Source: an uncultured Lentimicrobiaceae bacterium (GTDB lineage Bacteria > Bacteroidota > Bacteroidia > Bacteroidales > JAGONC01). Taken from it: a stretch of 64,000 nucleotides of DNA. Where the stretch lies: contig CAZVNP010000013.1 in NCBI GenBank assembly GCA_964628285.1, forward strand, positions 931 through 64,930, given 5' to 3'. Positions 6,894 to 51,778 of this stretch are shown here, piece after piece. How positions within the stretch are numbered: position 1 is the first letter of the stretch; every line of letters starts with the position of its first letter. Under the pieces are notes generated by a model. That model saw nothing but the letters and a program-made list of their open reading frames with translations. It did no database searches and was not told where the DNA came from. The position numbers and the translations under genes were made by a program.

Positions 6894-6943
6894 ATTATAG
6901 GAATTCTAATTTTATATGATAAAATCTAAAATATTTATATTAA

Positions 6944-8548: not shown

Positions 8549-8610
8549 GCGGGGGAATAACAGGCGCTGATGCAGTTGAAATGGTGGTTCCACGAAGAAT
8601 ATGAGGAGAA

Positions 8611-8658
8611 AACGAAGTAACGAAGTAACGAAGTAACGAGGTAGCGATGTAACGAAGT
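8611..8658. repeat. Octamer tandem repeat (AACGAAGT)x6, two units degenerate
   Basis: Read directly: aacgaagt x3, aacgaggt, agcgatgt, aacgaagt. Confidence 0.9.
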
Positions 8659-8692
8659 CATCAGAAGGAAAAACGATTGTTATTGTAAAGAG

Positions 8693-8832
8693 AGGCCTTA
8701 TAAAAATTCAGCAACAAATCAAGGCGAAAGGAGTGTAGAGATTTGTGCTGTCCGATTCCCGCCGTCAGGCGGGAAGAGTTCACAAATTTCAGCGCAGTGA
8801 GCCGTAGATTTGTCTGAATTTTTATGAAGCCT
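8693..8832. mobile_element. MITE-like 140-bp element with imperfect terminal inverted repeats and an internal hairpin
   Basis: Left end aggccttataaaaattcagcaacaaatc (8693-8720). The reverse complement of 8807-8832 is aggcttcataaaaattcagacaaatc. Internal hairpin tcccgcc-gtca-ggcggga at 8757-8774. Confidence 0.5.
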
Positions 8833-8899
8833 TGACTTTTACTCATGTAATTGTTTAATTTTTAAGGTATTCGTGAACTCGCTTCGCTCGTTTCTTTAT

Positions 8900-8954
8900 G
8901 TTCTTTTCGGCGCCTGTCCCGCCAAAGGCGGGATGTCAAGACAAAGAAAAGAAC
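8900..8954. repeat. REP-like nested hairpin
   Basis: gttcttttc (8900-8908) pairs with gaaaagaac (8946-8954) around tcccgcc-aaa-ggcggga (8917-8933), the same arms as at 8757-8774. Confidence 0.6.
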
Positions 8955-9022
8955 ACAATAAAATCCAAAATTATTTTCAACACTAATTTTGATATAATAT
9001 AGTCTTGCCTTAAATTTATGGA

Positions 9023-11671: not shown

Positions 11672-11680
11672 TAACGGGAT

Positions 11681-21404: not shown

Positions 21405-21625
21405 CAGCCCCCTACCCCACTCCTTCTCCTATGTTGGGGAAGGAATCAGGGGGATAGGGGCAAATCATTGAATGTTCGTTAATGTGTGTTGAAAATTGGG
21501 AAGAGAAAGGTTTTATTTAACCACGGAGGGACACTGGGGAAAAACGGAGGTTCACTGAGGATTAAAAAATTTATTTATTTTCCTCTGCGCCCTCTGGACC
21601 TCCTCTGTGCCCTCAGTGGTTAAAA
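21405..21625. repeat. Intact composite intergenic repeat: hairpin A (21405-21461) + segment B (21466-21528) + hairpin C (21516-21625)
   Basis: Hairpin A recurs at 34810-34867 and 46012-46069. Segment B recurs split at 46073-46094 and 49333-49391. Hairpin C arms are tttaaccacggagggacac and gtgccctcagtggttaaaa. Confidence 0.8.
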
Positions 21626-21710
21626 GAAACATATCAATCCGAACATCATCTCTTATTCCGGCACGCGTTGCAAACGTGCGCAAGCAAAGACTAATCAGCT
21701 CATCCTCACC

Positions 21711-34660: not shown

Positions 34661-34809
34661 GGAAATGGTGGTCAAATGATCGTAACATCGGGCCGGCCGG
34701 ATTGCTAAAATATAAAATTAATGGTTCCCGTCATGATGGGCAATGTGCACTTGCTAATTTTATTTGAAAAAATAACAGGCGAAGGCGGGATTGCGGGTTG
34801 CAGGCCGCA

Positions 34810-34867
34810 CAGCCCCCTACCCAATCCTTCCCCCATGTTGGGGGAAGGGATCAGGGGACAGGGGCTG
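34810..34867. repeat. Hairpin A, copy 2
   Basis: cagccccctacccaatccttccccc-atgtt-gggggaagggatcaggggacaggggctg. Confidence 0.85.
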
Positions 34868-34883
34868 ATCATTGGATGTGAAA

Positions 34884-34951
34884 ATGGGACTCCATCCACA
34901 TGCATAGTAAAATCTTTTTTCCGTTATCCGTTTGAGTGGATGGAGTCCCAT
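34884..34951. repeat. Palindrome P, copy 1
   Basis: Perfect arms atgggactccatccac (34884-34899) and gtggatggagtcccat (34936-34951) with a 36-nt loop. Confidence 0.9.
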
Positions 34952-34986
34952 CCGGAGTGGCGAAGATGCACCTTGAGCGCTCCCGC

Positions 34987-36216
34987 TCATTTCAGCAGGA
35001 TCATCTTCTTCACATCTTTCCGCTCATTGTTTACCTCAAGGGCGCAATAATAAATTCCTTCCGGTAGATCCTGTGGTGTAAAAGTAAACCGGTGTTCGCC
35101 TGATTCAGTATAATCATCATAAGGTACCGCCACCAGGGCACCCAGGAGGTTATAAACTTTCACCGAAACCTGGGCGGCCACAGGAACACGGAAAATAATG
35201 ACGGTGCTTTCTTTAAAAGGATTCGGCACATTTTGAGATACTTCTAATCTCTTTTTGATGCTATCATCATTTATCCCCACAAAATCGCCCAAATCATGAA
35301 AATAGGTGGTGAACGTTTCTCCATAATCCGTGCTGAAATCAATATATAGTAACACATGAGAACCCGTTGGGTCGGCTGTACTTCTTATGACATAAAAAGT
35401 ACCCGGTTCCCGTCCGGCGGTGTACTGAACTCCCCAGGAAGATAAATTGATATCATTGGATTCGTATTTTAAAACAAAGTTTTGCCCGGTATCGGTGCTG
35501 TGATAGATGCGGTATTTTGCGTAAAGCCACCAGGATACCAGATATATTTCGCCCGGCCCGGTGCCTCTGTGAATCTCAGGGTAGTTGCCTTCAATGGAAT
35601 AAAATGCAACTGAGGTATCAATGGGGATATCGGTAAAAGTACTACCGTAATCATGACTATAATGTAAAAAATATTGGACACCTGCCAATCCGTCCAAACC
35701 ATAAACTTCACCGGGTTCAGAGCCAACTTCTAACACATATTTTGCACTATCTCTTACCGGAATGAAATTATTTCCATAATCTATACTCCGCCATATGGTT
35801 CCCTGAGTATTTACACAGCATTTATATATTTCCCCATTTATGCAGCCGCTTGTAAATCTGCCGCTGGAGCCATAATTCTCTATATAGTTCCAGCTGACGC
35901 CATAGTCATAGCTTACCCATAATTCATTCCAGCCATAGTTGTACAGAACACCTGGTGTTGCATCACCTTTGGGAACGGCGATTGACATTGTTCCCGGTTC
36001 CGGCGGGCGCGTGCTGGAATACATTAATTGTATGGTCTGACCGTTATCTTGGGAGAAAAAAATCGCAAAATAATCTACTTCTGACCAATACCAATTATCA
36101 GTAATATAAATTTCACCGGGTTCAGCTCCGCGGGTGATTTGAGCAAAAGCAGGGATGCTGCAGAGAACTAAAATAATTGCCGATACGAATGAAAGGAAAA
36201 TATTTTTCATCATCAA
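34987..36216 (-). CDS. T9SS-sorted BNR/Asp-box propeller protein
   Basis: Signal peptide, six SxDxGxx(F/W/I) boxes, repeated GxxPGE(I/V)Y, C-terminal QNVPNPF...GIYYCAL. Confidence 0.85.
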   Translation of the reverse strand: MMMKNIFLSFVSAIILVLCSIPAFAQITRGAEPGEIYITDNWYWSEVDYFAIFFSQDNGQTIQLMYSSTRPPEPGTMSIAVPKGDATPGVLYNYGWNELWVSYDYGVSWNYIENYGSSGRFTSGCINGEIYKCCVNTQGTIWRSIDYGNNFIPVRDSAKYVLEVGSEPGEVYGLDGLAGVQYFLHYSHDYGSTFTDIPIDTSVAFYSIEGNYPEIHRGTGPGEIYLVSWWLYAKYRIYHSTDTGQNFVLKYESNDINLSSWGVQYTAGREPGTFYVIRSTADPTGSHVLLYIDFSTDYGETFTTYFHDLGDFVGINDDSIKKRLEVSQNVPNPFKESTVIIFRVPVAAQVSVKVYNLLGALVAVPYDDYTESGEHRFTFTPQDLPEGIYYCALEVNNERKDVKKMILLK

Positions 36217-36503
36217 TATTCTAATTTATATCGTTAATTATCTATCTTCAATTTATAAGCTGCAAAACAGATCATTATGATAATCTCACGATTATTTTTT
36301 GATTCAGACAATGTATTATTATCAAAAATCTTTATTAAGTAATTCAGGATTTAAAGATACAAAATATTCCAATATCAACTATTGATAAAAATAAAACAGA
36401 TAGTCATTTGGAATGATTAACGACTCGATCAGACCAGTTTATTCTTAAAAATCGTTATTCTGATTTTTCAGCATTAAGGATGTTTATTCTGGAAACATCC
36501 CTG

Positions 36504-38897
36504 TCAATATTCGACGATGATCCCCACTGTCGGTATCACCGTGCCGCTGAGGACATGCACCTGCTTAAGGATATACCGTGACGGGTCGTCGGGATCGATC
36601 ATGGGATTGCCGTTGGCGTCGAGGTTGGTGTATTCGGGCGGTGTGTCGACTTTAAAATTGTACACATTCTGCACGTCGACGTAAAGCATGAGTGACCATT
36701 TCCTGAAAAAAAATGCCTTATCCACTCTGACGTCGAGCTGATGGAATGATTTAAGACGGTTCCGGTTATAACGTGTGTAGTCAGGATAAGCCTGGTTACG
36801 GACATCCCATGCCGTGCGCAGGCTTGATTTATTCAGATCGGCGGGGGTATAAGGTGCACCGCCCACATAGCGCCACTTCAGGCCGGCTTCCCAGTGGCCA
36901 TTGAATTTCTTCAAAACGGTGATGTTGAAAAGATTGATGTTATCCCACGCCGACGGGATGTAGGCAGCCGTGGCGTTGGTAAACTCGCTCCTGACGAGGG
37001 TATAGGATAACAGCAGGTTAAAGCCCATCAAATCGGTATTCCTGTACAGAAGCTCCAGCCCGTAGGCCCGGCCCTCGGAGGTGGAGACAACGGGCTCGGC
37101 ACCGTAAACGCCGTAGTCGGCGCTCTTGCTGGCCATGGAGACCGAGTCGGCCAGCGAAAAAGGATAATGCCTGTAATATTTATAAAATCCTTCGAGGGAT
37201 AATTTGGAATGTTCATCAGGCAGCAGCTCAAGGCCGCCGACCACATGATCGACGGAGATATACGTCAGCCCGTTGATCTTGTTGATAAGCCGGGCCTGAT
37301 CGTCACGGTATCCCATCATGGTATAGGGAGGCAACTGGTAATAGCGTCCTGTATTGAAATTAAAAAAGAGCTTTGGCGTAAGCGCATAAGAGGCCGAGAA
37401 ACGCGGTGACACCTGCCTGAACAGATACGACATCTCGTCTGAATAACTGCCGGCATCCATTCTGACGCCCAACGAAAGGGCCAGCCTCTCTTTTATCAGG
37501 TTTCTGCTGACCTGCCCGAAGAGGCTCCATCTGTACATGTCGATGTACGAGTTATAATCCAGCACCTCAAGTTGATTCCAGATGTAGAGTTTTTGATAGG
37601 TGTCGTTGGTATATTTATCATACTCCGCCCCTGCCCCAATGTTGACATTGTAATTGCCCCACCGGGTGTTGTTCTCGTACCTGAACTTGTTCTCCATTTC
37701 CTGTGACCGAAGGTTCAGTATCAGCTTGCTTGGGTCATCCTCCACATTGTCCTCGTATTTATAAATTCTGTTGTTAAGCATGTTACGGCTGAGCACCCAG
37801 GTGTCGTAACCTTTTTGGCGGAAATGGCGGTACACGGCGCCGATGGCATAGCTCCACTGTTTATTGACAGGGAGGTAACCGAGGATATAGCGCTGCGATT
37901 CATCGGGATTTTTTATGCCCGTATTAAGCTTGGAATTATCTAAGGCACCGATGCTGATGATGCTCAACTGGTCTTTCAGGTTAAAATCATGTTTCACCTT
38001 GAACTGGTAATCGTTATATGTGGGCAGAAAAGGCAGTCCCAGGGCATTGAACAGGAACTGCAGGTAGGAGCGGCGGAGGGAGAAAATGCAGGTGGTCTTC
38101 TCTCCCAGGGGTCCGTCGAGTGTCAGGCCCAGGTCGGAGGCGCCGACGATAGCCCTGATATGCGCATGATCCCTGTTGCCGTCTTTCTGCTCAAATTCGA
38201 TCACCGAGCTCAGGGCGTTGCCGCGGTCGGCAGGGAAAGCGCCGGAATAGAAATTGACCTCACGGATGAAATCAACGTTGATGATGCCTACAGGTCCGCC
38301 GGAGGCGCCCTGTGTGGAGAAGTGATTGAGATAAGGTATTTCCACGCCGTCGAGGAAGAACCTGTTCTCGCTGGCGCCGCCGCCTCTGACGATCAGGTCG
38401 TTGCGGTAAGCGGGCGTGGATCCCACACCGGGGAGGATCTGTACGACCTTCGAAATGTCGCGGTTGCTGCCGGGGTTCTTCTCGATCTCGGCAATGCCCA
38501 AGGTTTGCATCGATAAGGGGCTCTCTTCATTCCGGACAAAGGGCGAGGCCTTGACGACCACGGCGTTGAGATCATAGGTCTTCTCCACCATCGGAATGTC
38601 AACGTATTCAATTTTGGCATTGGTCACCATCACCTCTTCGGTGAATTTATCCTCAAAGCCGACAGCGGTGGCTTTCAACCTGACGAAGCCGGGCTGCAGC
38701 CCCCGGATCGTATAATTACCGTCAAGGTCACTCGTGGCACCCGTTTCAGGCTGTTCCCACACGATGATATTGGTAAACGGCATCGGCTCATTGGTGGCGG
38801 CATTATATACCCTTCCCCTGATGGAGCCTGTCTGTCCGAAGGCAAAAAATTCTGTAGCCGATATCAATAAAAAGGTCAGTAATTGTCTCATCTTCAT
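36504..38897 (-). CDS. TonB-dependent receptor
   Basis: N-terminal carboxypeptidase-like domain, plug LIVRGG...ENRFFLDGVEIP..NHF, C-terminal PTVGIIVEY. Confidence 0.88.
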   Translation of the reverse strand: MKMRQLLTFLLISATEFFAFGQTGSIRGRVYNAATNEPMPFTNIIVWEQPETGATSDLDGNYTIRGLQPGFVRLKATAVGFEDKFTEEVMVTNAKIEYVDIPMVEKTYDLNAVVVKASPFVRNEESPLSMQTLGIAEIEKNPGSNRDISKVVQILPGVGSTPAYRNDLIVRGGGASENRFFLDGVEIPYLNHFSTQGASGGPVGIINVDFIREVNFYSGAFPADRGNALSSVIEFEQKDGNRDHAHIRAIVGASDLGLTLDGPLGEKTTCIFSLRRSYLQFLFNALGLPFLPTYNDYQFKVKHDFNLKDQLSIISIGALDNSKLNTGIKNPDESQRYILGYLPVNKQWSYAIGAVYRHFRQKGYDTWVLSRNMLNNRIYKYEDNVEDDPSKLILNLRSQEMENKFRYENNTRWGNYNVNIGAGAEYDKYTNDTYQKLYIWNQLEVLDYNSYIDMYRWSLFGQVSRNLIKERLALSLGVRMDAGSYSDEMSYLFRQVSPRFSASYALTPKLFFNFNTGRYYQLPPYTMMGYRDDQARLINKINGLTYISVDHVVGGLELLPDEHSKLSLEGFYKYYRHYPFSLADSVSMASKSADYGVYGAEPVVSTSEGRAYGLELLYRNTDLMGFNLLLSYTLVRSEFTNATAAYIPSAWDNINLFNITVLKKFNGHWEAGLKWRYVGGAPYTPADLNKSSLRTAWDVRNQAYPDYTRYNRNRLKSFHQLDVRVDKAFFFRKWSLMLYVDVQNVYNFKVDTPPEYTNLDANGNPMIDPDDPSRYILKQVHVLSGTVIPTVGIIVEY

Positions 38898-38961
38898 ATT
38901 AATTCATTTATTCTCCGATTGAATGACGTTCTATGTTTGTTTAACTTTTTACAACAAAAAG

Positions 38962-39870
38962 TTAAACAATTTTGTTCATCCTTTCAAGAATAAATGCCAT
39001 TTTTTTTTCATCTTCGAGTGTCCCGTCAATCCAGTTGATGCGGTGCCCATGACGCTCCATCCGGCGGAACCATGTCATCTGGCGTTTCGCATATTGATGG
39101 ATGGCCGTATTAAGACGTTCGAACATATCGTCGAACGACAGTTCCCCGAGGATATAGCGTGTGATGTATTTATATTCCAGACCATAATATATAAGCTTCT
39201 GAGGCTTCAAGCCGCTGTCGAGGAGGTGCCGCACCTCGTCGGTCATACCGGCATCAAGTCTATTCTTCAGTCTTTCGGTGATCCTTGCCCGGATGACAGG
39301 ACGTGGGAAGGAGATGCCGAAAATGACCGAATCGATGGCAGGTAGCGGCGGTGGTGTTTCGGGATGTGACCTGTAAAATTCCTGTATCTCGAGGGCACGT
39401 ATGAGCCTTTGCCTGTCGGAGGTGTCGCTGACGTTATGAGGCGTAGTATAGGATGCCAGCAGGGCGACCAGTTCATCACCGGACAGTGTTTTGAAGTAAG
39501 CCCTCCGCCGAGTGTCCACGGGCACCTGCAACAGGCGGTAGCGGTCCAGAACTGCCTCGAGGTAAAGGCCTGTCCCGCCGCACAGCACAGGCATCCGGCC
39601 ACGGGAGAGCACGGTACGGTATACCTTCAGAAAATCCCTCTGGTAGTCATAGACACTGTATTCCACGCCGGGATCCACGATATCGACCAGATGAAAGGGT
39701 ACCTGCTTACCGTCGACGGTATAATCACCATAGTCTTTGCCTGTGCCCAGGTTCATGCCGCGGTAAACCTGGCGTGAGTCGGCTGAGATGACCTCGCCGT
39801 TGAGGCGTGAGGCTGCCAGGGCGGCCAAAGCCGTTTTGCCCGAGGCGGTGGGGCCGAGGATAGTTATCAT
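38962..39870 (-). CDS. miaA: tRNA dimethylallyltransferase
   Basis: ILGPTASGKT, ISADSRQVYRGM, CGGTGLY, YAKRQMTWFR. The true start is ATG 39870; the track's SEKRIAN extension comes from the tandem repeat. Confidence 0.9.
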   Translation of the reverse strand: MITILGPTASGKTALAALAASRLNGEVISADSRQVYRGMNLGTGKDYGDYTVDGKQVPFHLVDIVDPGVEYSVYDYQRDFLKVYRTVLSRGRMPVLCGGTGLYLEAVLDRYRLLQVPVDTRRRAYFKTLSGDELVALLASYTTPHNVSDTSDRQRLIRALEIQEFYRSHPETPPPLPAIDSVIFGISFPRPVIRARITERLKNRLDAGMTDEVRHLLDSGLKPQKLIYYGLEYKYITRYILGELSFDDMFERLNTAIHQYAKRQMTWFRRMERHGHRINWIDGTLEDEKKMAFILERMNKIV

Positions 39871-39892
39871 GTAGTAAAGATAATAAATTGGG

Positions 39893-39969
39893 CGATTGTC
39901 GATTTTCGATTTTCGCTTCTCGCTATTCGCTATTCGCTTCTCGCTATTCGCTATTCGCTTCTCGCTTTT
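39893..39969. repeat. Heptamer tandem array, 11 units (CGCTATT/CGCTTCT/CGATTTT variants)
   Basis: Read directly, with a higher-order 21-bp period (cgcttct-cgctatt-cgctatt)x2. Confidence 0.9.
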
Positions 39970-39985
39970 CAATGTGAATAGGAGC

Positions 39986-41224
39986 TTAGGTTACCGTGAA
40001 GTGTCCGGATTGGCGGCAGTGGTCCTCGTGGGAAGAGAGGAAATCGCGCAGATGATTCAGGCCGGCGGGATCCATTTTTCCGAAATCGATGGCGTCGGGA
40101 TCAATATTCCATGACTGTAAGTGTTCAGGAGGGTAAAACTTTCTGATGAATGCCTTCAGGTTTTCCTCATCGCTGTGAAGCACTTTCTTTTGTTCCGTTT
40201 TGAGATACTGCAGTATCCTCAGTCCGTCCACCCTGGCGGTGCAGGCTCTGATGAACGGCTCACGGCTCCGGTAATTGTGGCGGAGGCGGCGCCAGGTGTC
40301 ATCCTTCCCGAACAGGGCGTAAAGAAAATCATCCATGGGTGTGGCGACATCTTTTTTAAAAAGAACATCAAAACGGTCATAGGTCTCCCTGACCTTATCG
40401 AAAAGGCTGTAATGATAAATGGGATAGCCGGACCAGTCGCCTGAGCGGCCTCTGATCATAGCGGGGCCGGTGCCGAAGAACACGCGGTCGGAGAAACGGG
40501 CCGCAGGATACACACGTTCTTCATTCCAATGAATGATACGGCCCTGTTTGCAGAGCTTCTGCATAAAATAAAAATCCTCCCCGCTTCTGTGTGGCGTGAT
40601 CCCTCCCACTTTTCTGTAGGCCCACACAGGCAGGGCCATGGCCGAGCCGAGGGCGGTGAAGGCATAGGGGTTGGTGATGCGCCACATGTTAAGGAAATAA
40701 TAACGCATGTATATCTCATAGCGCAGCATGCACCTGTCGGTGTCGCCATCTCCGGTCAAGTGGTGGTAATAAGGTAAAGATAGTGCCATGGCCTCGGGAT
40801 GACTCTTCAGGGTCCGGCAAACCGACTGTAAATAGTTCTCATGGAAGGTGGTGTCGGCATCGATGCTGATGATGATGTCCTCATTATTGGCTTTGCTGAC
40901 GATGGCGTCCATGGCTGTCTTACGTGCCCAGCCCACGCCCAGGTTCTTGCCCTGCCAGCCCCGGCCCGGTGTGGAACGGTCGAGGAGGGTGAGGCGGATG
41001 CCTTCGAGACCCTCAAGGTATTCAAGGGTCCGGCTGTTCCTTAGACAGATTTCCCTTTTCTCCTGGTCATACCACCAGCGGTCGGGCTGATTGACGCAGA
41101 CAACCAGCTCATATGACGTCAGTGATTGTTTCCGCAAGACGGCGATGAGCCGGGGCAGAAGCTCCGTTTCATCCATCACGGGCAAGGCCAGGTAAACGAA
41201 AGGTGTCGATACGGTTGACGACAT
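39986..41224 (-). CDS. GT-A fold (GT2-like) glycosyltransferase
   Basis: ISIDADT (DxD), YRKVGG...SGEDFYF, SDRVFFGTG. Confidence 0.7.
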   Translation of the reverse strand: MSSTVSTPFVYLALPVMDETELLPRLIAVLRKQSLTSYELVVCVNQPDRWWYDQEKREICLRNSRTLEYLEGLEGIRLTLLDRSTPGRGWQGKNLGVGWARKTAMDAIVSKANNEDIIISIDADTTFHENYLQSVCRTLKSHPEAMALSLPYYHHLTGDGDTDRCMLRYEIYMRYYFLNMWRITNPYAFTALGSAMALPVWAYRKVGGITPHRSGEDFYFMQKLCKQGRIIHWNEERVYPAARFSDRVFFGTGPAMIRGRSGDWSGYPIYHYSLFDKVRETYDRFDVLFKKDVATPMDDFLYALFGKDDTWRRLRHNYRSREPFIRACTARVDGLRILQYLKTEQKKVLHSDEENLKAFIRKFYPPEHLQSWNIDPDAIDFGKMDPAGLNHLRDFLSSHEDHCRQSGHFTVT

Positions 41225-41225
41225 G

Positions 41226-42218
41226 TCACTCGATGCCGGCGAAGTGCTTCATGAACTGCACCCGTTCATAAGGTGCCGGGTTTTCGGCCTTTTTAAAGCT
41301 CATCAGACCGATGAAATCGCTGAGGTGCTCAAAACGGTGTTTCTGCATCCAGGCTTCGATATCATTAAGCATCTCCCCTATGCGTCCGAGGCCGTTCTTG
41401 TAAAAGGTGGTGACACACTGCACAGCTTTGGCACCGGCGAGGAGTTGTTTGATGACGGCTTTTCCGTCGTGGATACCCGTTGAGGCGGCGATATCGCAGT
41501 GCACCCTGTCGGAGAGGATAGCCACCCAGCGCAGCGAGATGGCTATCTCGTCAGGGGTGCTGAAAATATTGGAAGGCACCACTTTAAACCGGTCGACATC
41601 AATGTCGGGAGAGTAAAAGCGGTTGAAGAGGACCATGCCGGCGATGCCTGTCCAGGAGATGCGGAGGGCAAACTTGGCCAGGCCGGAGAAATAATAGCTT
41701 ATTTTGATTGACAGCGGGATGGATATTTGCCTGATGACATTCTGCACGATCTCAAAGTAGAGGTTTTGATTTTCCTCACCGCTGCGCTGAGGGTCAGACG
41801 GCAGGATGAAAATGTTCAGTTCGAGGGCATCGGCGCCGGCATCTTCTATCCGTCGTGCAAAGGTGGTCCACTCATGGGTGCTGACACAGTTGATGCTCGC
41901 GATCACCGGTATCTTGACCGCCAGTTTGCAGTCCCTGATAAAATCAAGGTATTCATTCAATGAATGATCCCTGGAATAGGTCGCAATGTAGTCGTTGGCC
42001 TCGGCATAGGCATAGGGCGTATCATGGCCGCTGCCGTTGAAGGCGTGGCTGATCTCATAGCGTATCTGTTCTTCGAAAAGTGACTTTAAAACAACAGCTG
42101 CAGCGCCCTTCTTTTCAATCTCGGTGATGCTGTCGACGGCCATCGTCAGCCCCGAGCTGCCCACGATGATGGGATTCTTCAGCTGAAGCCCCATGTACCT
42201 CGTTGAAAGATCGATCAT
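41226..42218 (-). CDS. Dihydroorotate dehydrogenase-like flavoprotein
   Basis: GLQLKNPIIVGSS, VVLKSLFEEQI, VLFNRFY, ASTGIHDG. Confidence 0.85.
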   Translation of the reverse strand: MIDLSTRYMGLQLKNPIIVGSSGLTMAVDSITEIEKKGAAAVVLKSLFEEQIRYEISHAFNGSGHDTPYAYAEANDYIATYSRDHSLNEYLDFIRDCKLAVKIPVIASINCVSTHEWTTFARRIEDAGADALELNIFILPSDPQRSGEENQNLYFEIVQNVIRQISIPLSIKISYYFSGLAKFALRISWTGIAGMVLFNRFYSPDIDVDRFKVVPSNIFSTPDEIAISLRWVAILSDRVHCDIAASTGIHDGKAVIKQLLAGAKAVQCVTTFYKNGLGRIGEMLNDIEAWMQKHRFEHLSDFIGLMSFKKAENPAPYERVQFMKHFAGIE

Positions 42219-42313
42219 AAGACCATCAGGTTAAAAGATTCAAAACCGTATAAATTCAATGTGCCAGGCAAATTTAACGATTCATATCCAAAAACGGATA
42301 AAAATGTCGAATA

Positions 42314-43750
42314 TTAACGGCAGATCTTCCGGTCTTCTTCGGTGAAGCCATTGGTTTTGATCTTGACGATCTCCCTGATGTCATTGATTATCTTGGATGC
42401 GAGGGTTTCTGCCTTGACGATCGAATCGCTTTCGGAGAATATCCTGATGACCGGTTCGGTGTTGGATTTGCGTAAATGGACCCATTCATCGTTGAACTCG
42501 ATGCGGATGCCGTCGGTATTGTCAACCGGCTGTTTGCTGTACCTTTCCCTCATTTTCTGCATGATATCATCCACATCCATCTCAGGGTCGAGGGTCAGTT
42601 TATTTTTAGAGATAAAATAATTGGGGTAGGCATTACGAAGCACCGAGCAGCTCTTTCCCGAAGTGGCGAGATATGACAGGAACAGGGCTATGCCGGCGAG
42701 GGCGTCGCGGCCGTAATGCAGGTCGGGGTATATGACGCCGCCGTTGCCTTCGCCGCCGATGACGGCTTTCCTGGCTTTCATCATCTTCACCACATGGGGC
42801 TCACCCACAGCCGAAGCGAAGTATTCACCGCCGGCTTTGAGGGTGATGTCGCGCAAGGCCATCGTGGAAGACAGATTGGAGACGGTATTGCCTTTTTTAT
42901 GCTGAAGGATATAATCGGCGACGGCGACGAGCGTGTATTCCTCGCCGAACATTTCGCCGTCTTCCATCACAATGGCCAACCTGTCGACGTCGGGGTCGAC
43001 GGCAAAGCCGACATGGGCATTGCTCTTAATGACCATTTCCGACAGCTCGCCGAGGTTCTCCGCCAGGGGCTCGGGGTTATGAGGAAACTCACCCGTGGGC
43101 TCGCAATAGAGACATTCGATGTCTTCCACACCCAGCCGCCGGAGCAACGCCGGTACGGCCATACCGCCGCCGGAGCTGATGCCGTCAACGGCCACCCTGA
43201 AACGTGCCGCCCTGATGGCTTCCACATTGACGAGAGGAAGGGCCAAGATCTTATCCAGATGCCGTTCCAGAGCGGCGGCATCATTATGATACCTGCCAAG
43301 GGAAGAAGGGGATGCATATTCAAAATCGTCCAGGCGTGAGAGCTCATGCACTACCGAAGCTTCCTTCGCCGACAGGAACTCGCCCCGGTGATTGAGCAGC
43401 TTCAGGGCATTCCATTGTTTGGGATTATGACTGGCGGTAATGGCTATACCACCTTCGCCCTGTAAATCGACGACGGCTATTTCAAGTGTCGGTGTTGTGG
43501 TCAGACCCACGTTGACCACATCAATGCCACAGGCCGTCAGGGTAGCCGCCACGATGTTGCTGACCATCACTCCCGAAGGACGGGCATCACGCCCTATGAT
43601 GACCCTGGCTTTGCCGTCACCCCTCCTGTTCTGCAGAATAAAGCGTGCAAATGCTGTCGTGAACTTCACTGTATCTACTGGCGTTAACCCCTCACCGGAC
43701 CGGGCACCTATCGTACCCCTGATCCCTGAAACCGAATTGATCAATACCAT
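42314..43750 (-). CDS. glmM: Phosphoglucosamine mutase (alpha-phosphohexomutase)
   Basis: SGIRG, ITASHNP, DPDVDR, GGEGNGG, RKSNTEP. Confidence 0.85.
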   Translation of the reverse strand: MVLINSVSGIRGTIGARSGEGLTPVDTVKFTTAFARFILQNRRGDGKARVIIGRDARPSGVMVSNIVAATLTACGIDVVNVGLTTTPTLEIAVVDLQGEGGIAITASHNPKQWNALKLLNHRGEFLSAKEASVVHELSRLDDFEYASPSSLGRYHNDAAALERHLDKILALPLVNVEAIRAARFRVAVDGISSGGGMAVPALLRRLGVEDIECLYCEPTGEFPHNPEPLAENLGELSEMVIKSNAHVGFAVDPDVDRLAIVMEDGEMFGEEYTLVAVADYILQHKKGNTVSNLSSTMALRDITLKAGGEYFASAVGEPHVVKMMKARKAVIGGEGNGGVIYPDLHYGRDALAGIALFLSYLATSGKSCSVLRNAYPNYFISKNKLTLDPEMDVDDIMQKMRERYSKQPVDNTDGIRIEFNDEWVHLRKSNTEPVIRIFSESDSIVKAETLASKIINDIREIVKIKTNGFTEEDRKICR

Positions 43751-44021
43751 CGTGACGGATGTAAAAACGATTCACTGTTAAAACAACTCACTGCTGAAAA
43801 GGTTAATTCGTAGATTTGTGCATAAAAATAACTTTTTATTCAGGCTTTTGGGTGGTGTTGTTAATAAGTGCTAACATTTTTTAACATCCCGTCACGTAAA
43901 AACATGATGGAATTGATAATTTTCACAAATAAAACCGGGATCTTTGAAAATATTTTTATGTTTCACTTTTCTATACCTTTGCATCGTGTATTAAATAACG
44001 CTTTTTCGGGCATCAGATTGT

Positions 44022-45437
44022 ATGGAAGAGAATTTTGAGTTTTATAATAATGAGGAAGACATCATGACGGTCATTTACCGTTTTGAAAAGATGGTGGGGA
44101 CAGACAGTAATATTTTCTTCGACGTGGAGGATTTTGAGGCCATCATTGATTATTACCTCGGCAGGAATGACATGGAAAAAGCGGCATTAGCCATCGACCG
44201 TGCGCTGTCGCAGCATCCCGGCGCGGTCGTTTTCCTGCTGAAGAAAGTGCAATATTTTATCTCTTCCAACAATACCAAAAAAGCGCTACAGATGCTCGGT
44301 GAATTAGAAGACCTTGAACCTGACAATACGGAGATCCATATGACCAAAGGCTCTGTTTACAGCCAGCTTAAAAAGTACGACAAAGCCATTGAAGAATATC
44401 ATAAAGCCCTCGAAGACAGCGATGAACCGGAAGACATCTACACCAACATTGCCTTTGAGTACGAAAATCTCGGCAATTATCAGAAAGCCGTTGAATACCT
44501 GAGAAAAGTCGTCGAGAGTGATCCTGAAAATGAAACGGCCCTTTATGAGATCTCCTTTTGTTTTGAGATCACCAACCGTCCCGAGGAAAGCATTGATTTC
44601 TTCCGGCGGCATATTGACAAATTCCCCTATTCCAAGACGGCCTGGTTCAACCTGGGCATTGCTTACAACAACCTTGAGAAGTACGACAAAGCCATCCAGG
44701 CCTATGACTATGCCCTGGCCATCGATGAAACGTTCTCCTCGGCTTATTTCAACAAAGCCAACTCATATGCCAACCTTAAAGATTACAAACAGGCCATTAG
44801 CACATATGAAGAGACGTTCCGGTACGAACAGCCCGAGGCCATGACCTATTATTATATCGGCGAGTGTTATGAGAAGATGGAAGACTACCGCCGGGCCTTA
44901 CGCAGTTACAACGAAGCACTGCGTCTCGACGATGAGCTGGCCGACGCGTGGCTGGGCAAGGGGCTGGCCTACGACGTCATGAAACTGCCTGATAAAGCCA
45001 TCGATTGTGTCCAGAAAGCCGTCGACCTCAACCCCCTTAACACGGAATACTGGTATTTCCTCGGTGACATGCAGTATAAGTGCGGTCTCCTGAAAATGGC
45101 CCTTTTCTCATACCGTCAGGTGACGCAGCTCAACCCCGATGATCCCGACATATGGCTGGATTACTCCAACGTTTATTTCGAGATGGGCGACATCCGAAGC
45201 GCCATCAAAGTGCTCGAAGAAGGCATTGAGCTGCAACCCGACCATGCCGACATGCTGTACCGGCTGACCGTATACAAACATGTCTCAGGCAAGAGCAAAT
45301 CGGCTTACGAGCTGCTCGGCAAAGCCCTCAGGCTGAACTTCCAGAACCATAAACAACTGTTCAAATACTATCCGAAACTCAGGAATGATCCCCATATCAT
45401 CGAGATCATCGACCTGTACAAAGAAAGCGAAGAATGA
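44022..45437 (+). CDS. Tetratricopeptide repeat protein
   Basis: Many TPR units (AWFNLGIAY, AYFNKANSY, AWLGKG). Candidate -7 box TACCTTTG at 43974-43981. Confidence 0.9.
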   Translation: MEENFEFYNNEEDIMTVIYRFEKMVGTDSNIFFDVEDFEAIIDYYLGRNDMEKAALAIDRALSQHPGAVVFLLKKVQYFISSNNTKKALQMLGELEDLEPDNTEIHMTKGSVYSQLKKYDKAIEEYHKALEDSDEPEDIYTNIAFEYENLGNYQKAVEYLRKVVESDPENETALYEISFCFEITNRPEESIDFFRRHIDKFPYSKTAWFNLGIAYNNLEKYDKAIQAYDYALAIDETFSSAYFNKANSYANLKDYKQAISTYEETFRYEQPEAMTYYYIGECYEKMEDYRRALRSYNEALRLDDELADAWLGKGLAYDVMKLPDKAIDCVQKAVDLNPLNTEYWYFLGDMQYKCGLLKMALFSYRQVTQLNPDDPDIWLDYSNVYFEMGDIRSAIKVLEEGIELQPDHADMLYRLTVYKHVSGKSKSAYELLGKALRLNFQNHKQLFKYYPKLRNDPHIIEIIDLYKESEE

Positions 45438-45438
45438 C

Positions 45439-45960
45439 ATGAAAAAGACAGCTCTTGTTTACTGGCCGCGCAGAGGCAGCGTGGAAAAGAATGCCAGAAG
45501 GATCGCTGACCGTCTCGGACACGATCATGTCCATCTGATCCCGCTGAAAGATCTTGATCCTGATATGTTAAGAGATTATCCTGTCATCCTGTTCGGTTGT
45601 TCCACTGTGGGTGCCGACTCGTGGCGCAATGCCTGGACCGGCAACCAGTGGTTCAAGTTTTTCGTGAAGATGCATGATAAAAATACCGACCTGACAGGCA
45701 AAACGGCGGCCATCTTCGGTTTGGGCGACCAGATACTCTACCCTGCCGATTTTGTCAATGAGATCGCTGAGATCAGGAAAGAGCTCAAGTCGCGCGGAGC
45801 CACTGTCATAGGCAATTGGCCTGCAGAAGGGTATGAGAATACCGACAGCCAAGCCCTTGAGGGTGGCCATTTCATGGGTCTGGCCCTCGACGAGCACAAC
45901 CAATCCGAACTCAGCGAAGAGAGAATAAGCCGGTGGCTGGAGATGCTGAAGCAGGGATAG
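45439..45960 (+). CDS. Long-chain flavodoxin
   Basis: LFGCSTVG, AIFGLGDQILY, FMGLALDEHNQSELSEERI. Start set at ATG 45439. Confidence 0.85.
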   Translation: MKKTALVYWPRRGSVEKNARRIADRLGHDHVHLIPLKDLDPDMLRDYPVILFGCSTVGADSWRNAWTGNQWFKFFVKMHDKNTDLTGKTAAIFGLGDQILYPADFVNEIAEIRKELKSRGATVIGNWPAEGYENTDSQALEGGHFMGLALDEHNQSELSEERISRWLEMLKQG

Positions 45961-45963
45961 AAA

Positions 45964-46005
45964 GTTGCAGGTTACAGGTTGCGGGTTGCAAGTTGCGAGT
46001 TGCAA
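45964..46005. repeat. Heptamer tandem array (GTTGCAR-like)x6
   Basis: gttgcag gttacag gttgcgg gttgcaa gttgcga gttgcaa, directly before hairpin A. Confidence 0.85.
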
Positions 46006-46011
46006 GCTACG

Positions 46012-46069
46012 CAGCCCCCTACCCATCCCTTCCCCCAACATTGGGGAAGGGGTCAGGGGATAGGGGCTG
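46012..46069. repeat. Hairpin A, copy 3
   Basis: cagccccctacccatcccttcccccaacattggggaaggggtcaggggataggggctg. Confidence 0.85.
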
Positions 46070-46099
46070 AACATTGAATGTTCGTCAATGAGTGAAAAA

Positions 46100-46163
46100 G
46101 GGACTCCATCCACCTGCATGGTAAAATCTTTTTTCCGCTATCTGTTTGAGTGGATGGAGTCCC
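46100..46163. repeat. Palindrome P, copy 2
   Basis: gggactccatccac (46100-46113), 36-nt loop, gtggatggagtccc (46150-46163). Confidence 0.9.
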
Positions 46164-46572
46164 ATTCGAACTGATTCATAAAATTATATGTGAAATGAGT
46201 TGGATACCAATTGCTTGAATCATATAAACCGGACACGTCAAAATCCCTTAACCTGTTAATTTCATAAGTGTAGTTATAACTTACACATGCGGCAGGGCCA
46301 CAACTTGAATAAAGTTGCCGAAAAATCGGGTGCATGTATTTTTCCTCTGAATTGTCAATGACAAAAGGTAATGGGGTTTGAGAAGACACTGATGTAAGTT
46401 CCAGTTCCGGAATTTCATCCAGTTTGGCAATGTATTCAGGGGTGTAATCGGGGATTTTCCCAGCGATCCAGGGGTCACCATTCGGATCAGGATTTAAGTT
46501 CCTGACCTGAGCATGCGCCATCTTGAACATCGTCAAGGTTAAGAATGCTAAAAGAAAGTAAATGTTTTTCAT
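46138..46572 (-). pseudogene. Truncated papain-like (C1) cysteine peptidase, N-terminal fragment only
   Basis: Signal peptide, LPFVIDNS...PIFRQLYSSCG (Gln and catalytic Cys), YTYEIN, YPTHFTYNF. The last codons WDSIHSNR* are read from palindrome P. Confidence 0.7.
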
Positions 46573-46580
46573 AATGCAGT

Positions 46581-47831
46581 TTATTTAATGATCATTTTAC
46601 CTGAACATTTATTATTGTCATTAAATATTTCATAAAGATATACTCCCGGAACCAATCCTGTTGAATTGAACGGTATTCTGTTATTTGATAAAGAATTTCG
46701 TATTATTTTAGAACTTCTGACGATATCCCCTTTAAGATCAAATATATTTAAATATATTTGCCCGGAAGAATTCGTTTGCATAGAATAATAGATATATGTT
46801 TTACAGGAAAATGGATTGGGATAATTATAGGTAGCAGGTTGTTGAATGCTGATTTCCGGATCCGTTCCCACTGTTGGATTGATACTTCTATGAATTGTAT
46901 TTGTACTATATCCGCTTATTGTATAAATATATTCACCCGGAGTTAAGATTAATTCTTTCATATTATCTGTACCTAAGCCCGAGTCAAGAAGCTGCCAGTT
47001 ATTTCCATCATCATATGATACCAGAACACCTCCCTGACCACCAAAGTCATTTGAACGGCCGATATAGATTTCATCTTCCGAATTGATGACCATTGTCGTT
47101 ACAATGAGGCTGTCCTTTATCTGTACCCATTCTTGCTGATCTTTATTATATTTATAAATACCTGCTCCGGTCAGATTTAACAATTGATGTCCCTGTGCTC
47201 CGGCGAATAGTTCGTTGTTTGAATTAACCGCGAGTGATGAAACATATACATTGTGCAATCCGAAATACTCCCACGAGTCCCCGTGATCTAACGACCGGAA
47301 GGCTCCCTCACCACCCATAAAATTGGTTGCTCCTGCGTATAGAATACTGTCAGAGTCTTCAACGATTGAGAGAATAACAGCAGTTGTTGTTATAATTAAA
47401 GTTTGAGTCCAGGTTTCACCATTGCTAGCTGACTTATAAATGCCTCCCCAAGTTCCAGCATAAATGTTTCCATTTGAATCTTCATATAATATGGAGACTC
47501 CCATAGGCAAATAAAAAAGAAGGCTCCAATTGTTATTTTGATACTTATATATATATCTAACAGCCGAAAGAAATATTGTATCAGTCAATGTAATTAGAAT
47601 ATTACCCACTATAGTATCTGTTAAACCAATATTTTCCCACGAACCACAATTATCATAGGACACATAAATTCCGCTATTTGTTCCCAAATAAAAAATATTC
47701 TCTTCTATACTGGTAATAAAAGCCGGTGTCAAACCTTCCGGCCCATTCACAGGTTCCCAGAAATCCTGGGAAAAGGAAGGCTTGTTAATCAATACTGCAA
47801 ATAATAAAAGAAAACAGGTAATGAATTTCAT
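46581..47831 (-). CDS. T9SS-sorted Asp-box propeller protein
   Basis: Signal peptide ending SFS/Q, SxDxGxxW boxes, C-terminal NYPNPFS...GVYLYEI. Confidence 0.85.
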   Translation of the reverse strand: MKFITCFLLLFAVLINKPSFSQDFWEPVNGPEGLTPAFITSIEENIFYLGTNSGIYVSYDNCGSWENIGLTDTIVGNILITLTDTIFLSAVRYIYKYQNNNWSLLFYLPMGVSILYEDSNGNIYAGTWGGIYKSASNGETWTQTLIITTTAVILSIVEDSDSILYAGATNFMGGEGAFRSLDHGDSWEYFGLHNVYVSSLAVNSNNELFAGAQGHQLLNLTGAGIYKYNKDQQEWVQIKDSLIVTTMVINSEDEIYIGRSNDFGGQGGVLVSYDDGNNWQLLDSGLGTDNMKELILTPGEYIYTISGYSTNTIHRSINPTVGTDPEISIQQPATYNYPNPFSCKTYIYYSMQTNSSGQIYLNIFDLKGDIVRSSKIIRNSLSNNRIPFNSTGLVPGVYLYEIFNDNNKCSGKMIIK

Positions 47832-47916
47832 TGTGTATGCTATTATTTGATAGACTTAAAGATACAAATTATAAAAAACAAGGTTATAAAAATAAAAACT
47901 CCTTATAATCAGATTG

Positions 47917-49173
47917 TTATTTAATGATCATTTTACCTGAACATTTATAATTGTCACTGATTATTTCATAAAGATATACTCCCGGAGTCAATCCCGTTGA
48001 ATTAAACAGTATCCGGTTATTCGACAAAGAATTTTGAATGATCTTTTTACTCCTGACGATATCCCCGTTAAGATCAAATACATTTAAATATATTTGCCCG
48101 GAAGAATTCATTTGCATAGGATAATAGATATATGTTTTACCGGAAAACGGATTGGGATAATTATAGGTAACAGGTTGTTGAACTTTGATTTCCGGACTGA
48201 TTCCTACTGTAGAATTAACACTTCTATGGATCGTATTCGAACTGAATCCGCTTATGGTATAAATATGTTCATCAGGCGTCAGGGTTAATTGTTTCATGTT
48301 GTCCGTTCCTAAACCCGAGTCAAGAAGCTGCCAGTTATAGCCGTCATCATAGGATACAAGTACGCATCCCTGCCCGCCAAAATCATTTGAACGACCAATA
48401 TATATCTCATCTTCGGAATTGATGACCATTGTCGACACGATGAGGCTATCCTTTATCTGTATCCATTCCTGCTGATCTTTATCATATTTATACACACCGG
48501 CTCCGGTCAGGTTTAACAGTTGATGTCCCTGTGCCCCGGCAAACAGTTCGTTGATTGAATTAACCGCAAGGGATGACACATATACGTTATGCAATCCGAA
48601 GTACTCCCACGTATCACCGTGATCCAAGGACCGGAAGGCGCCTTCACCTCCCATGTAATTGGTCGCTCCGGCATAAAGAATTCCGTCATGGTCTTCAACG
48701 ATTGAAAAAACTGCAGCAGTTGTGGTTATTGTTAGAGTTTGAATCCAATTTTCGCCAAAATCTAATGATTTGAAGATCCCTCCCCAAGTTCCGGCAAATA
48801 AATTATTATCAGTATCAGAAAATAAAATTAAAATATTATCTGAAGTAAGAACCTTTGTCCAAAATCCATTATTGTATTTATAAATTCCACTTCCAATACT
48901 CATCACACCAGCAAAAATTATATTTTGAAAAGGTAAAACTGAGATAACAGCCATATCGCTAAGCCCAAGATTTTGCCATGAAGTACAACTATCATAAGAA
49001 ATGTAAACTCCATTATTTGACCCTAAATTAAATACGTTATCTGCTGAAATATTAATATATGCTGGGGAAGCATCTGATGGACTATTAACTATTTCCCAGA
49101 AATCCTGGGAAAAGGAAGGATTAGTAATCAATGCAAGTAATGACAACAAAATGTAACAGGCTATATTTTTCAT
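47917..49173 (-). CDS. T9SS-sorted Asp-box propeller protein, close paralog of 46581-47831
   Basis: True start MKNIACY at 49173; the track's MDGVPF extension is read from palindrome P. The C-terminal two-thirds are nearly identical to the neighbour. Confidence 0.85.
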   Translation of the reverse strand: MKNIACYILLSLLALITNPSFSQDFWEIVNSPSDASPAYINISADNVFNLGSNNGVYISYDSCTSWQNLGLSDMAVISVLPFQNIIFAGVMSIGSGIYKYNNGFWTKVLTSDNILILFSDTDNNLFAGTWGGIFKSLDFGENWIQTLTITTTAAVFSIVEDHDGILYAGATNYMGGEGAFRSLDHGDTWEYFGLHNVYVSSLAVNSINELFAGAQGHQLLNLTGAGVYKYDKDQQEWIQIKDSLIVSTMVINSEDEIYIGRSNDFGGQGCVLVSYDDGYNWQLLDSGLGTDNMKQLTLTPDEHIYTISGFSSNTIHRSVNSTVGISPEIKVQQPVTYNYPNPFSGKTYIYYPMQMNSSGQIYLNVFDLNGDIVRSKKIIQNSLSNNRILFNSTGLTPGVYLYEIISDNYKCSGKMIIK

Positions 49174-49261
49174 TATATAGATATTTATTTGGTTGGTTGG
49201 GCTAAAAGTACAAATTTCTATGGTCAGATGCAAGAAATGTTTATAACTGGATAATGAAAAA

Positions 49262-49327
49262 GGGACTCCATCCACCTGGGTAATAGAATCCTTTTTCAGT
49301 TATTCGTATTTGAGTGGATGGAGTCCC
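49262..49327. repeat. Palindrome P, copy 3
   Basis: gggactccatccac (49262-49275), 38-nt loop, gtggatggagtccc (49314-49327). Confidence 0.9.
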
Positions 49328-49332
49328 AACCG

Positions 49333-49391
49333 GAATGTTCGTCAATGAGTGTTGAAAATTGGAAAGAGAGAGGTTTTGTTTAACCACGGAG
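49333..49391. repeat. Segment B, right part of the split composite repeat
   Basis: 49352-49391 matches 21489-21528 at 37/40 positions. Confidence 0.85.
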
Positions 49392-49457
49392 TTATACCGT
49401 TAATTTTTATTCCCCATTGCCAAATGGCATAAACGTAGGAGAAGGGACTTCCATTGA

Positions 49458-49513
49458 AAACCTGCAGATCCATTGACCCGAAGACCTGTAGACCTGAAGA
49501 CCTGTAGACCTTA
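49458..49513. repeat. Octamer tandem array (AGACCTGW-like)x7, left units degenerate
   Basis: agacctgt agacctga agacctgt agacctta, preceded by three degenerate units. Confidence 0.75.
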
Positions 49514-49530
49514 AACTGATGGTTGCCGAC

Positions 49531-51778
<2,248 letters not shown>

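Follow-up and report, generated by a model that had tools for sequence, protein, structure and literature searches.

Systems that pair repetitive extragenic palindromes (REPs) with a REP-associated tyrosine transposase (RAYT) are widespread. Their role in the cell remains a matter of debate, and outside Proteobacteria they have been little described. REP families typically exceed 100 copies per genome. The subject of this study is a hairpin element, P, which occurs three times in a 64,000-nt stretch of DNA (positions 931 to 64,930 of contig C13; hereafter, the window) from G000, a metagenome-assembled genome (MAG) of an uncultured Bacteroidales bacterium (135 contigs, 3.35 Mb, 48% G+C; the family label Lentimicrobiaceae is carried by a family-level relative of G000). 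P is quite probably the long-loop subfamily of a species-specific REP family, whose cognate RAYT is encoded on another contig of the same MAG (C64:2065-2655).

A close comparison is with REPtrons such as Escherichia coli YafM/RayT and its REPs (PDB 4ER8) or the RAYT and REP doublets forming hairpins (REPINs) of Pseudomonas fluorescens. As in those systems, a single-copy HUH/Y1 gene in G000 is bracketed by a palindrome that is scattered between genes, mostly at gene 3′ ends, and that is lineage specific, changing along with the enzyme. Two stem subtypes (CCG-type and CAC-type) are comparable to the Y and Z REPs, and the palindromes mix with further repeat modules, called A, B and C below, into arrangements like bacterial interspersed mosaic elements (BIMEs). 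The system described here differs in having about 21 copies, perfect 14-bp stems and no GTAG or CGTC tag, in one subtype with a 36-38-nt loop and conserved 7-nt flanks, in the position of half of its copies by cargo genes of the type IX secretion system (T9SS), and in a C64 protein only distantly related to 4ER8. Set beside a REPIN, P consists of two inverted 14-nt arms around a 36-38-nt spacer, the arms being halves of a short REP stem and not complete REPs, and its flanks are asymmetric.

Within the phylum, Quentin et al. (2018; PMC6006769) described subclasses 2.6 and 2.4 of TnpA-Y1 class 2 as RAYT-like proteins of Bacteroidetes. These proteins resemble the C64 RAYT in their origin from Bacteroidota, their length (about 180-195 aa), their NH-u-H and Y-x3-NP motifs and their patchy distribution, and their genes are likewise flanked by “atypical secondary structures” with copies elsewhere in the genome (PMC6006769). 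The subclass signatures are YIH[QN]NP (2.6) and YIxNNP (2.4), compared with NHFH and YIHFNP here, which leaves the C64 RAYT without a subclass assignment. Neither long-loop derivatives nor a link to cargo genes is described in that study (PMC6006769).

P hairpins in the window and across the genome

The three copies of P in the window, each given with its 7-nt flanks, are as follows.

34879-34956, minus strand: P copy 1; hairpin 34886-34949, 14-bp arms, 36-nt loop, flanks TGAAAAT / ATCCGGA
46093-46170, minus strand: P copy 2; hairpin 46100-46163, flanks TGAAAAA / ATTCGAA
49255-49334, minus strand: P copy 3; hairpin 49262-49327, 38-nt loop, subtype b, flanks TGAAAAA / AACCGGA

The window contains exactly six occurrences of the 14-mer arm GGGACTCCATCCAC, arranged as three inverted pairs (34886-34899/34936-34949, 46100-46113/46150-46163 and 49262-49275/49314-49327). 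When up to two mismatches were allowed, seven matches were found against 0.56 expected, a number reached in none of 100 shuffles. The original prediction of three hairpins with identical 14-bp arms was thus borne out, as was its description of the loops (36, 36 and 38 nt) as related and uniformly oriented: in ungapped alignments over 82 nt, copy 2 was 90% and copy 3 was 61% identical to copy 1. Whole hairpins measure 64-66 nt. The left flank TGAAAA(A/T) is kept in all three copies, as had been noticed; the right side had been described as diverging after ...ccca, but it carries a 7-nt block of the form A-Y-Y-Y-R-R-A (ATCCGGA, ATTCGAA, AACCGGA), and divergence starts beyond this block. With both 7-nt flanks the P unit spans about 78 nt, and the flank forms are common to most long copies. 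Copy 1 lies 38 nt beyond the stop codon of the T9SS gene at 34987-36216, the minus strand reading hairpin and then ATTTTCA. Copy 2, whose loop is 100% identical to those of P copies on contigs C9 and C88, provides the final eight codons and the stop of a truncated open reading frame (ORF; 46138-46572). Copy 3 lies 3′ of the gene for the V-type ATPase K subunit and 5′ of the first T9SS gene of a cassette described below.

G000 holds 21 hairpins of this family, distributed over 16 contigs, and a further one truncated by the end of contig C106; all 21 are intergenic or at ORF edges, and no further members were found in G000 even when three substitutions per arm were allowed. The whole family has in common a near-invariant stem base, GGGACTCCATCC/GGATGGAGTCCC. 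Its members are 11 full long-loop, P-like copies with three loop subtypes, six short hairpins (32-47 nt) with stems ending in CCG (CCC in one), and four odd hairpins with unrelated loops or degenerate stems. Since 19 of the 21 hairpins have a perfect 12-bp basal core on each arm, the P stem is, to judge from the sequences, under constraint. Position 13 is the sole covarying position of the stem (A-T, G-C or C-G across copies). The original argument for a recognition site ran from a conserved, asymmetric loop, and in this respect it was not supported, the stem being the constrained part: loops differ by 30-40% between subtypes and show no sign of selected structure. RNAalifold predicted only the outer stem for the family, and a putative conserved inner helix (columns 21-26 with 38-43) was not supported, as the 72% of cells that pair were no better than in shuffles. 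The loop sequence was not found outside P in G000, and Rfam gave no gathering-score match in the window and none at E ≤ 1 in 45900-49600. Because the loop is confined to P and shows neither a supported inner structure nor an Rfam match, its conservation is attributed to recent common descent of few copies rather than to function.

Two of the other hairpins showed peculiarities of their own. The family member at C77:6119-6184, with its A/T-rich loop, occurs once at that site in the MAG and as a tandem duplicate on metagenome contig L029 (391-531) from the same population, the only copy-number difference seen between assemblies. At 39893-39970 of the window, tandem 7-nt/21-nt repeats (CGATTTT CGCTTCT CGCTATT ...) stand at the 5′ end of ORF 38962-39972, and the loop of an odd family member at C44:25521-25583 is filled by the reverse complement of those heptamers (AATAGCGAGAAGCGAATA).

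The RAYT gene on contig C64 and the distribution of P

Listing the genes that adjoin every hairpin of the family yielded a single-copy gene at C64:2065-2655 (196-aa product) that is bracketed by two short family hairpins, at C64:1954-1989 (76 nt upstream) and C64:2661-2695 (6 nt downstream). The product carries NHFH at residues 60-63 and YIHFNP at residues 127-132 (HuH and Y-x3-NP motifs). Among 40 homologues, H61, H63, Y127, I128, H129 and P132 do not vary, and N131 is conserved in at least 90%. It matched the NCBIfam model NF047646, “REP-associated tyrosine transposase” (E = 6 × 10−14; profile positions 8-146 of 146), and has more than 1900 homologues, many of them named RayT by JGI. A profile of this protein family had a sole match in the PDB, 4ER8_A (E. 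coli TnpA-REP; E = 5.4 × 10−6). The same entry was the best PDB match in a Foldseek search with the AlphaFold model of the C64 RAYT (pLDDT 89.4; E = 9.7 × 10−7; TM score 0.63/0.73; 14% identity in the structural alignment with 4ER8), followed by TnpA structures of ISDra2 and IS608 and by IS200 transposases. The gene has one match in G000 and a patchy distribution, being found in 21 of 61 searched genomes including G000. At 33% G+C it falls, together with the fam2 and papain-like genes introduced below (35-37%), in the lowest 1-3% of genes.

Hairpins accompany this gene in other genomes as well. At homologous RAYT loci from other Bacteroidales genomes, a perfect hairpin of 25-37 nt, particular to the genome, stood on both sides in eight of ten cases and downstream only in the other two. 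A metagenomic ortholog with 72% identity occupies the syntenic site, beside the GH2 beta-mannosidase gene that also neighbors the RAYT gene in G000, and arrays with two related types of REP lie around it. The type GGGACTCAATCCAC-GAA-GTGGTTGGAGTCCC is the CAC-type arm of P with a 3-nt loop; this sister-species REP is preceded by TTCGCAT, at the place where P on the corresponding strand has TTCGAAT. Because the same stem brackets the single-copy RAYT gene, a DNA-processing enzyme very probably recognizes P. The suggestion that P is a site for a recombinase, transposase or RNA-binding protein therefore stands as far as recognition by an enzyme is concerned, and it does so by way of the stem.

Three genes with the Pfam domain Y1_Tnp (C5:99596-100081, C13:65186-65677 and C54:7690-8163) were considered as the cognate enzyme and rejected. 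Their visible flanks hold no P-type hairpins (the C5 and C13 genes are at contig ends, with the upstream flanks missing). They are less than 28% identical to the C64 RAYT over short stretches, and as unrelated genes they are thus not the cognate enzyme. The C13 gene, about 250 nt past the right end of the window, and the C54 gene are single-copy Y1 HUH genes with a Y-x3-Q-x2-H(H) motif (YINNQFVHH and YIRNQTVH), the signature of the non-IS subclass 1.2 (Quentin et al., PMC6006769). The 3′ flank of the C13 gene contains GACCTGCAGACCT, and the motif GACCTGYAGACC occurs 39 times in G000, including in tandem at 49470-49510 of the window.

A search across relatives had been proposed along with the original prediction, and pattern scans showed P to be restricted to its lineage apart from one short hairpin. 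The long form was found in none of 7 other genomes of the family and nowhere in a collection of species-representative genomes; the short form was found as one hairpin in the same-genus genome G001 and otherwise in none of the 7 family and 40 order relatives. Plasmid and phage collections gave no match to P. Of 22 metagenome contigs with the hairpin pattern, 20 map to G000, nearly all at 98-100% identity, and two short ones (L044 and L046) do not. The intergenic DNA of G001 has another perfect hairpin, AGCCCACGACTTAAGTCGTGGGCT, with three tandem copies after the V-type ATPase K gene on L026 (1700-1880; G001:C3), where a shikimate-dehydrogenase-like gene lies between the K and flavodoxin genes; an intergenic palindrome of its own seems to mark each lineage. 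Outside the species, the fam2 homologue closest in sequence (61% identity) belongs to another genus; about 250 nt upstream of it, on L177 (1192-1259; G003:C209), lies a long-loop hairpin (arms GAACAGAGGA/TCCTCTGTTC, 41-nt loop, sequence unrelated to P).

Gene ends, T9SS cassettes and intergenic mosaics

Most copies lie from a few to 95 nt beyond a stop codon, often between convergent genes; the short members follow stop codons by 2-21 nt and are flanked by convergent genes. Predicted hairpin stabilities range from -29 to -48 kcal/mol. Of the 11 full long copies, 9 have a T-run (4-6 T) directly behind the hairpin when read on the T9SS gene strand. Because of this T-run on the gene strand, P most likely also terminates or stabilizes transcripts. 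It had been proposed that P is a recognition site rather than a simple terminator, an opposition that the T-runs and the position of these copies, mostly just 3′ of a gene, do not bear out. In its G+C-rich stem, its T-run on the gene strand and its distance of a few to 40 nt from stops, P resembles Rho-independent (bidirectional) terminators; it differs from them in that all P copies have one stem sequence and in its loop of 36-38 nt.

About 180 T9SS cargo genes are present in G000. A cargo gene directly adjoins 11 of the 21 hairpins, compared with 11.3% of intergenic gaps (binomial p = 5 × 10−6), and when paralogous contexts were collapsed, 6 of 16 hairpins had a T9SS neighbor (p = 0.006). 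Apart from two families named fam1 and fam2, the cargo neighbors include the unrelated genes C17:21943-24078, C44:242-4999 and C64:543-1952. Those next to P in the window (34987-36216, 46581-47831 and 47917-49275) combine Por_Secre_tail with BNR/propeller repeats at 35-42% G+C. The statement that P always stands beside T9SS genes is therefore true of the three window copies and not of the genome. The original prediction had also set a link with variable cargo against a generic REP or terminator following housekeeping genes. Both sides of that opposition have a counterpart here: P belongs with the REPs, and some copies do follow housekeeping genes (that for V-type ATPase K in the window, that for an alcohol dehydrogenase on C66), while the link with cargo is real. 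The window features that bear on this link are the following.

21409-21528, plus strand: intergenic mosaic of modules A, B and C without P and without the cassette
34987-36216, minus strand: fam1 T9SS cargo gene; 409 aa, BNR/Asp-box repeats and Por_Secre_tail, 42% G+C
45385-45960, plus strand: flavodoxin gene; likely start 45439
46076-46094, plus strand: module B (GAATGTTCGTCAATGAGTG), part of the palindrome CATTGA-ATGTTCG-TCAATG; abuts P copy 2
46138-46572, minus strand: remnant of a papain-like/T9SS gene, 144 aa; full-length paralogues have 898-1145 aa (C88 from 5125, L036, L050)
46581-47831, minus strand: fam2B T9SS cargo gene; 416 aa, beta-propeller/BNR and Por_Secre_tail, 35% G+C
47917-49275, minus strand: fam2A T9SS cargo gene; 452 aa from a GTG inside P, likelier 418 aa from 49173; 36.5% G+C
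49333-49351, plus strand: second, identical copy of module B; abuts P copy 3 and is followed by a truncated C palindromic repeat to about 49391
49531-50049, minus strand: V-type ATPase K (proteolipid) subunit gene, the other ancestral neighbor of the insertion site

A gap of 43-70 nt separates the flavodoxin and K genes in two related genera; in the window the gap is 3.5 kb and holds, in this order, hairpin A, module B, P, the papain-like remnant, the two fam2 genes (73% identical to each other), P, module B and the truncated C repeat. The remnant is the N terminus of the papain-like protein, and its homology to the paralogues ends at codon 136, which is the outer edge of the 7-nt flank of P. 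A unit consisting of P, a fam2 gene, a papain-like gene and P was found at a minimum of five loci (≥5) beside unrelated housekeeping genes. Smaller units also recur: the fam1 3′ end with P on C16, C106/L038, L045 and L033, and the fam2A 5′ leader with P on C88, C66/L040, L033 and L054. At P, the fam2 leader meets four distinct right-hand sequences, the fam1 3′ end meets three distinct left-hand ones, and the A/B mosaic meets three on the right. Judged by this re-assortment of flanks, the borders of P are recombination joints of T9SS cassettes, and the near-identical copies at both ends of multi-copy T9SS units suggest that P copies acted as such joints. The process that made the joints may have been the action of the RAYT, of RecA on identities of 64-78 nt, or of a recombinase on module B. 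Among about 40 population contigs (JGI, ENA and Logan) there was neither an empty site nor a circle junction; all of them carry the cassette or break at P.

One of these sequences, L054 (ena:ERZ27245614:k141_1059701), tracks the window from the V-type ATPase operon through P to 49088 and past that point is 99.7% identical to a different fam2/papain-like cassette (L050), which is elsewhere joined to C16. L054 may reflect a rearrangement in a strain, joining two cassette loci, or an assembly chimera formed over a shared stretch of 150 nt. Elsewhere in the window, the region 4403-13122 contains a pair of paralogous, AT-rich T9SS gene blocks spaced by about 4.75 kb. Several of their segments (repeat families D2, D3, D8 and D10) match at 75-82% identity, and the blocks have no P at their borders.

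The two copies of module B (46076-46094 and 49333-49351) form a 19-nt direct repeat around a cassette of 3.2 kb. Reading this repeat as a target-site duplication was considered weak, because identical consensus copies occur at C39 and C16 and B is the usual head of the B-C repeat. Likewise, the P-less mosaic at 21409-21528 was rejected as an orthologous empty site, since it is paralogous. The B-C repeat family has about 12 copies, each made of the 19-nt B and a palindrome of about 170 nt built of CGGAGG / CCTCTG(C/T)G units (AACCACGGAGG ... CCTCTGCGGTT). Copies are found in the window (21470-21660 and 49333-49391), at C9:1314-1443, C4:36522-36648 and C82:8377-8592, and on C39, C10, C30 and C90; the one at 49333, beside P, is cut after about 60 nt. 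The B-C repeat may be the REP or REPIN of another Y1 gene. Module A is a hairpin with G/C tracts, CCCCCTACCC..CCTTCCCCCA-(A)CATT/TGTT-GGGGAAGG..GGGGATAGGGGC, found in the window at 21409-21469, 34791-34878 and 45993-46075. It precedes B or P at three sites, and A, B, C and P together make up BIME-like mosaics.

Weighing the explanations, and what P may mean

We favor a composite reading in which P belongs to a REP/RAYT family, has a likely terminator role and has served as a recombination joint for T9SS units; taken as a whole, this reading is probable. Under it, the RAYT would bind the folded stem on single-stranded DNA and would cut and rejoin at the stem foot, an activity that would both give rise to new copies and hold the stem to one sequence. 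The unit that moves or is copied would measure about 78 nt (TGAAAAW, hairpin, AYYYRRA). P would also end or stabilize the transcripts of the preceding T9SS cargo genes and insulate the next promoter, and near-identical P copies at both ends of T9SS units of 3-5 kb would provide joints for duplication, deletion and re-assortment.

Several observations weigh against this reading. There are 21 copies (and one at a contig edge), compared with hundreds in classical REP families. No 5′ GTAG or CGTC tag is present, and the flanks are A-rich (..AAA before GGGA); at its foot the long form reads TGAAAAW on one side and, on the opposite strand, TYYRRAT. In G000 the RAYT gene is flanked by short-loop members only, and the long-loop P is tied to it by the common stem and the REPs of the sister species, not by adjacency. 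The RAYT itself scores 52.1 bits with NF047646, below the equivalog cut-off of 80, and has no Pfam match, including to PF01797, which some of its homologues do match. The approximately 40 population contigs showed no presence/absence polymorphism of P or of the cassette, so mobility is read from paralogous contexts only. Two long copies (on C18 and C88) lie between divergent genes. As to termination, a loop of 36-38 nt is atypical of an intrinsic terminator (short loop of 3-8 nt), and a terminator consensus scan, which cannot detect P on account of its long loop, called no copy.

One alternative is that P, as an ordinary intrinsic terminator, multiplied passively whenever T9SS genes duplicated, its likeness to the hairpins at the RAYT gene having no functional meaning. 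Such a history would suit the T-runs of the long copies, the position of the short members just past stops between convergent genes, and the recurrence of the fam1 3′ end with P and of P with the fam2 leader as fixed units. It would not lead one to expect a 12-bp stem that is invariant beside genes as unrelated as those for a phosphate acetyltransferase, an S46 peptidase, an M48-like protease and T9SS cargo while the loops diverge by 30-40%. The same stem on both sides of the RAYT gene is the defining arrangement of a REPtron, and co-duplication leaves unexplained both the re-assortment of flanks and the gene cut at a P border. We therefore regard passive copying as unlikely.

Another view would give P a more active part, same-oriented pairs of P being the ends of an element like IS200/IS605 or like palindrome-associated transposable elements (PATEs), with the RAYT acting in trans to move cassettes of 3-5 kb as single-stranded circles. 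The cassette at 46095-49332 does lie between two same-oriented P copies, its insertion separates two genes that are neighbors in relatives, and fam2 cassettes with P on the 5′ side occur at a minimum of five loci, by V-type ATPase K, MutS, alcohol dehydrogenase and methyltransferase genes. An arrangement P-B-P′ at C66:39-210 resembles a circle junction, and the very low G+C content is common to the cassette genes and the RAYT gene. Same-oriented end hairpins, a Y1 HUH enzyme for folded single-stranded hairpins and borders without target duplication are points of likeness to IS200/IS605 elements and PATEs. The differences are an enzyme gene located outside the segment, a cargo made up of secreted-protein genes (3 kb), the 19-nt module B on either side of the segment, and the fact that no evidence of excision was found. 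Y1 transposition leaves no target duplication, yet the 19-nt B repeat flanks the cassette, and no population contig has the empty site or circle junction. The independent events are few, homologous recombination between repeats of 64-78 nt gives the same picture, and RAYTs are generally seen as domesticated and not as gene-moving (PMC6006769). An element of this kind is about as improbable as passive copying; that P pairs actively mobilize T9SS cargo cassettes, with the RAYT in trans, is a slight possibility, put a shade higher.

More doubtful than either is a role of module B as the crossover site of a site-specific recombinase, with P a passenger terminator inside the cassette ends. Integration of a circle through B would be expected to give A-B-[P...P]-B-C, as compared with the P-less A-B-C at 21409-21528, the 6-7-6 inverted repeat of B is like the core site of a recombinase, and B or a shortened B abuts 8 of 12 long copies (the 11 full ones and the contig-edge copy on C106). 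The consensus 19-mer is nevertheless present at C39 and C16 too, which makes identical flanking copies weak evidence of duplication, and B is normally the 5′ part of a B-C palindromic repeat of 190 nt. Other P copies are not flanked by B on both sides, and the only four tyrosine recombinase genes (Phage_integrase domain) are on C67, C50, C7 and C2, none of them a P-bearing contig. The arrangement also invites comparison with integron cassettes, in which imperfectly conserved palindromic attC sites stand between promoter-poor cargo genes of atypical composition; P differs in having no integrase or attI nearby, no long array, perfect stems without extrahelical bases and a hairpin that flanks the RAYT gene.

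It is highly improbable that P is a miniature inverted-repeat transposable element (MITE) that arose by deletion from a DDE-type insertion sequence and whose terminal inverted repeats are the 14-bp arms: the perfect inverted termini, defined unit length and several contexts would suit one, but the borders lack target-site duplications, the arm is always in a hairpin and never encloses a DDE transposase (the sole enclosed enzyme gene being the RAYT), and plasmid and phage collections hold no match. Least credible of all is a structured small RNA or cis-regulatory RNA element, for which the oriented, conserved loop and the G-T pairs of a possible inner helix, suited to one strand only, could be cited, since Rfam gave no match at E ≤ 1, RNAalifold supported the outer stem alone, the inner helix with its 72% pairing did no better than shuffles, and the strand that permits G-U pairs is antisense to all neighboring genes.

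On the composite REP/RAYT reading, P is a new lineage-specific case of such a system, unusual for a long-loop subtype with fixed flanks and for its place at the borders of T9SS cassettes. For annotation it matters that assemblies break at P (five contigs stop at a copy or close to one), that P makes false ORF starts and stops (47917-49275 and 46138-46572) and that it is prone to being misread as an attC-like site or a MITE. With 21 copies, one enzyme, two stem subtypes and a sister species for comparison, the family is tractable. It makes testable whether the RAYT recognizes the stem base rather than a GTAG tag and whether REPs promote the duplication or relocation of neighboring genes. Should the slight possibility of active mobilization prove true, a REP/RAYT system would copy and relocate T9SS cassettes, and it would have a concrete function for its host in diversifying the secreted and surface proteome.

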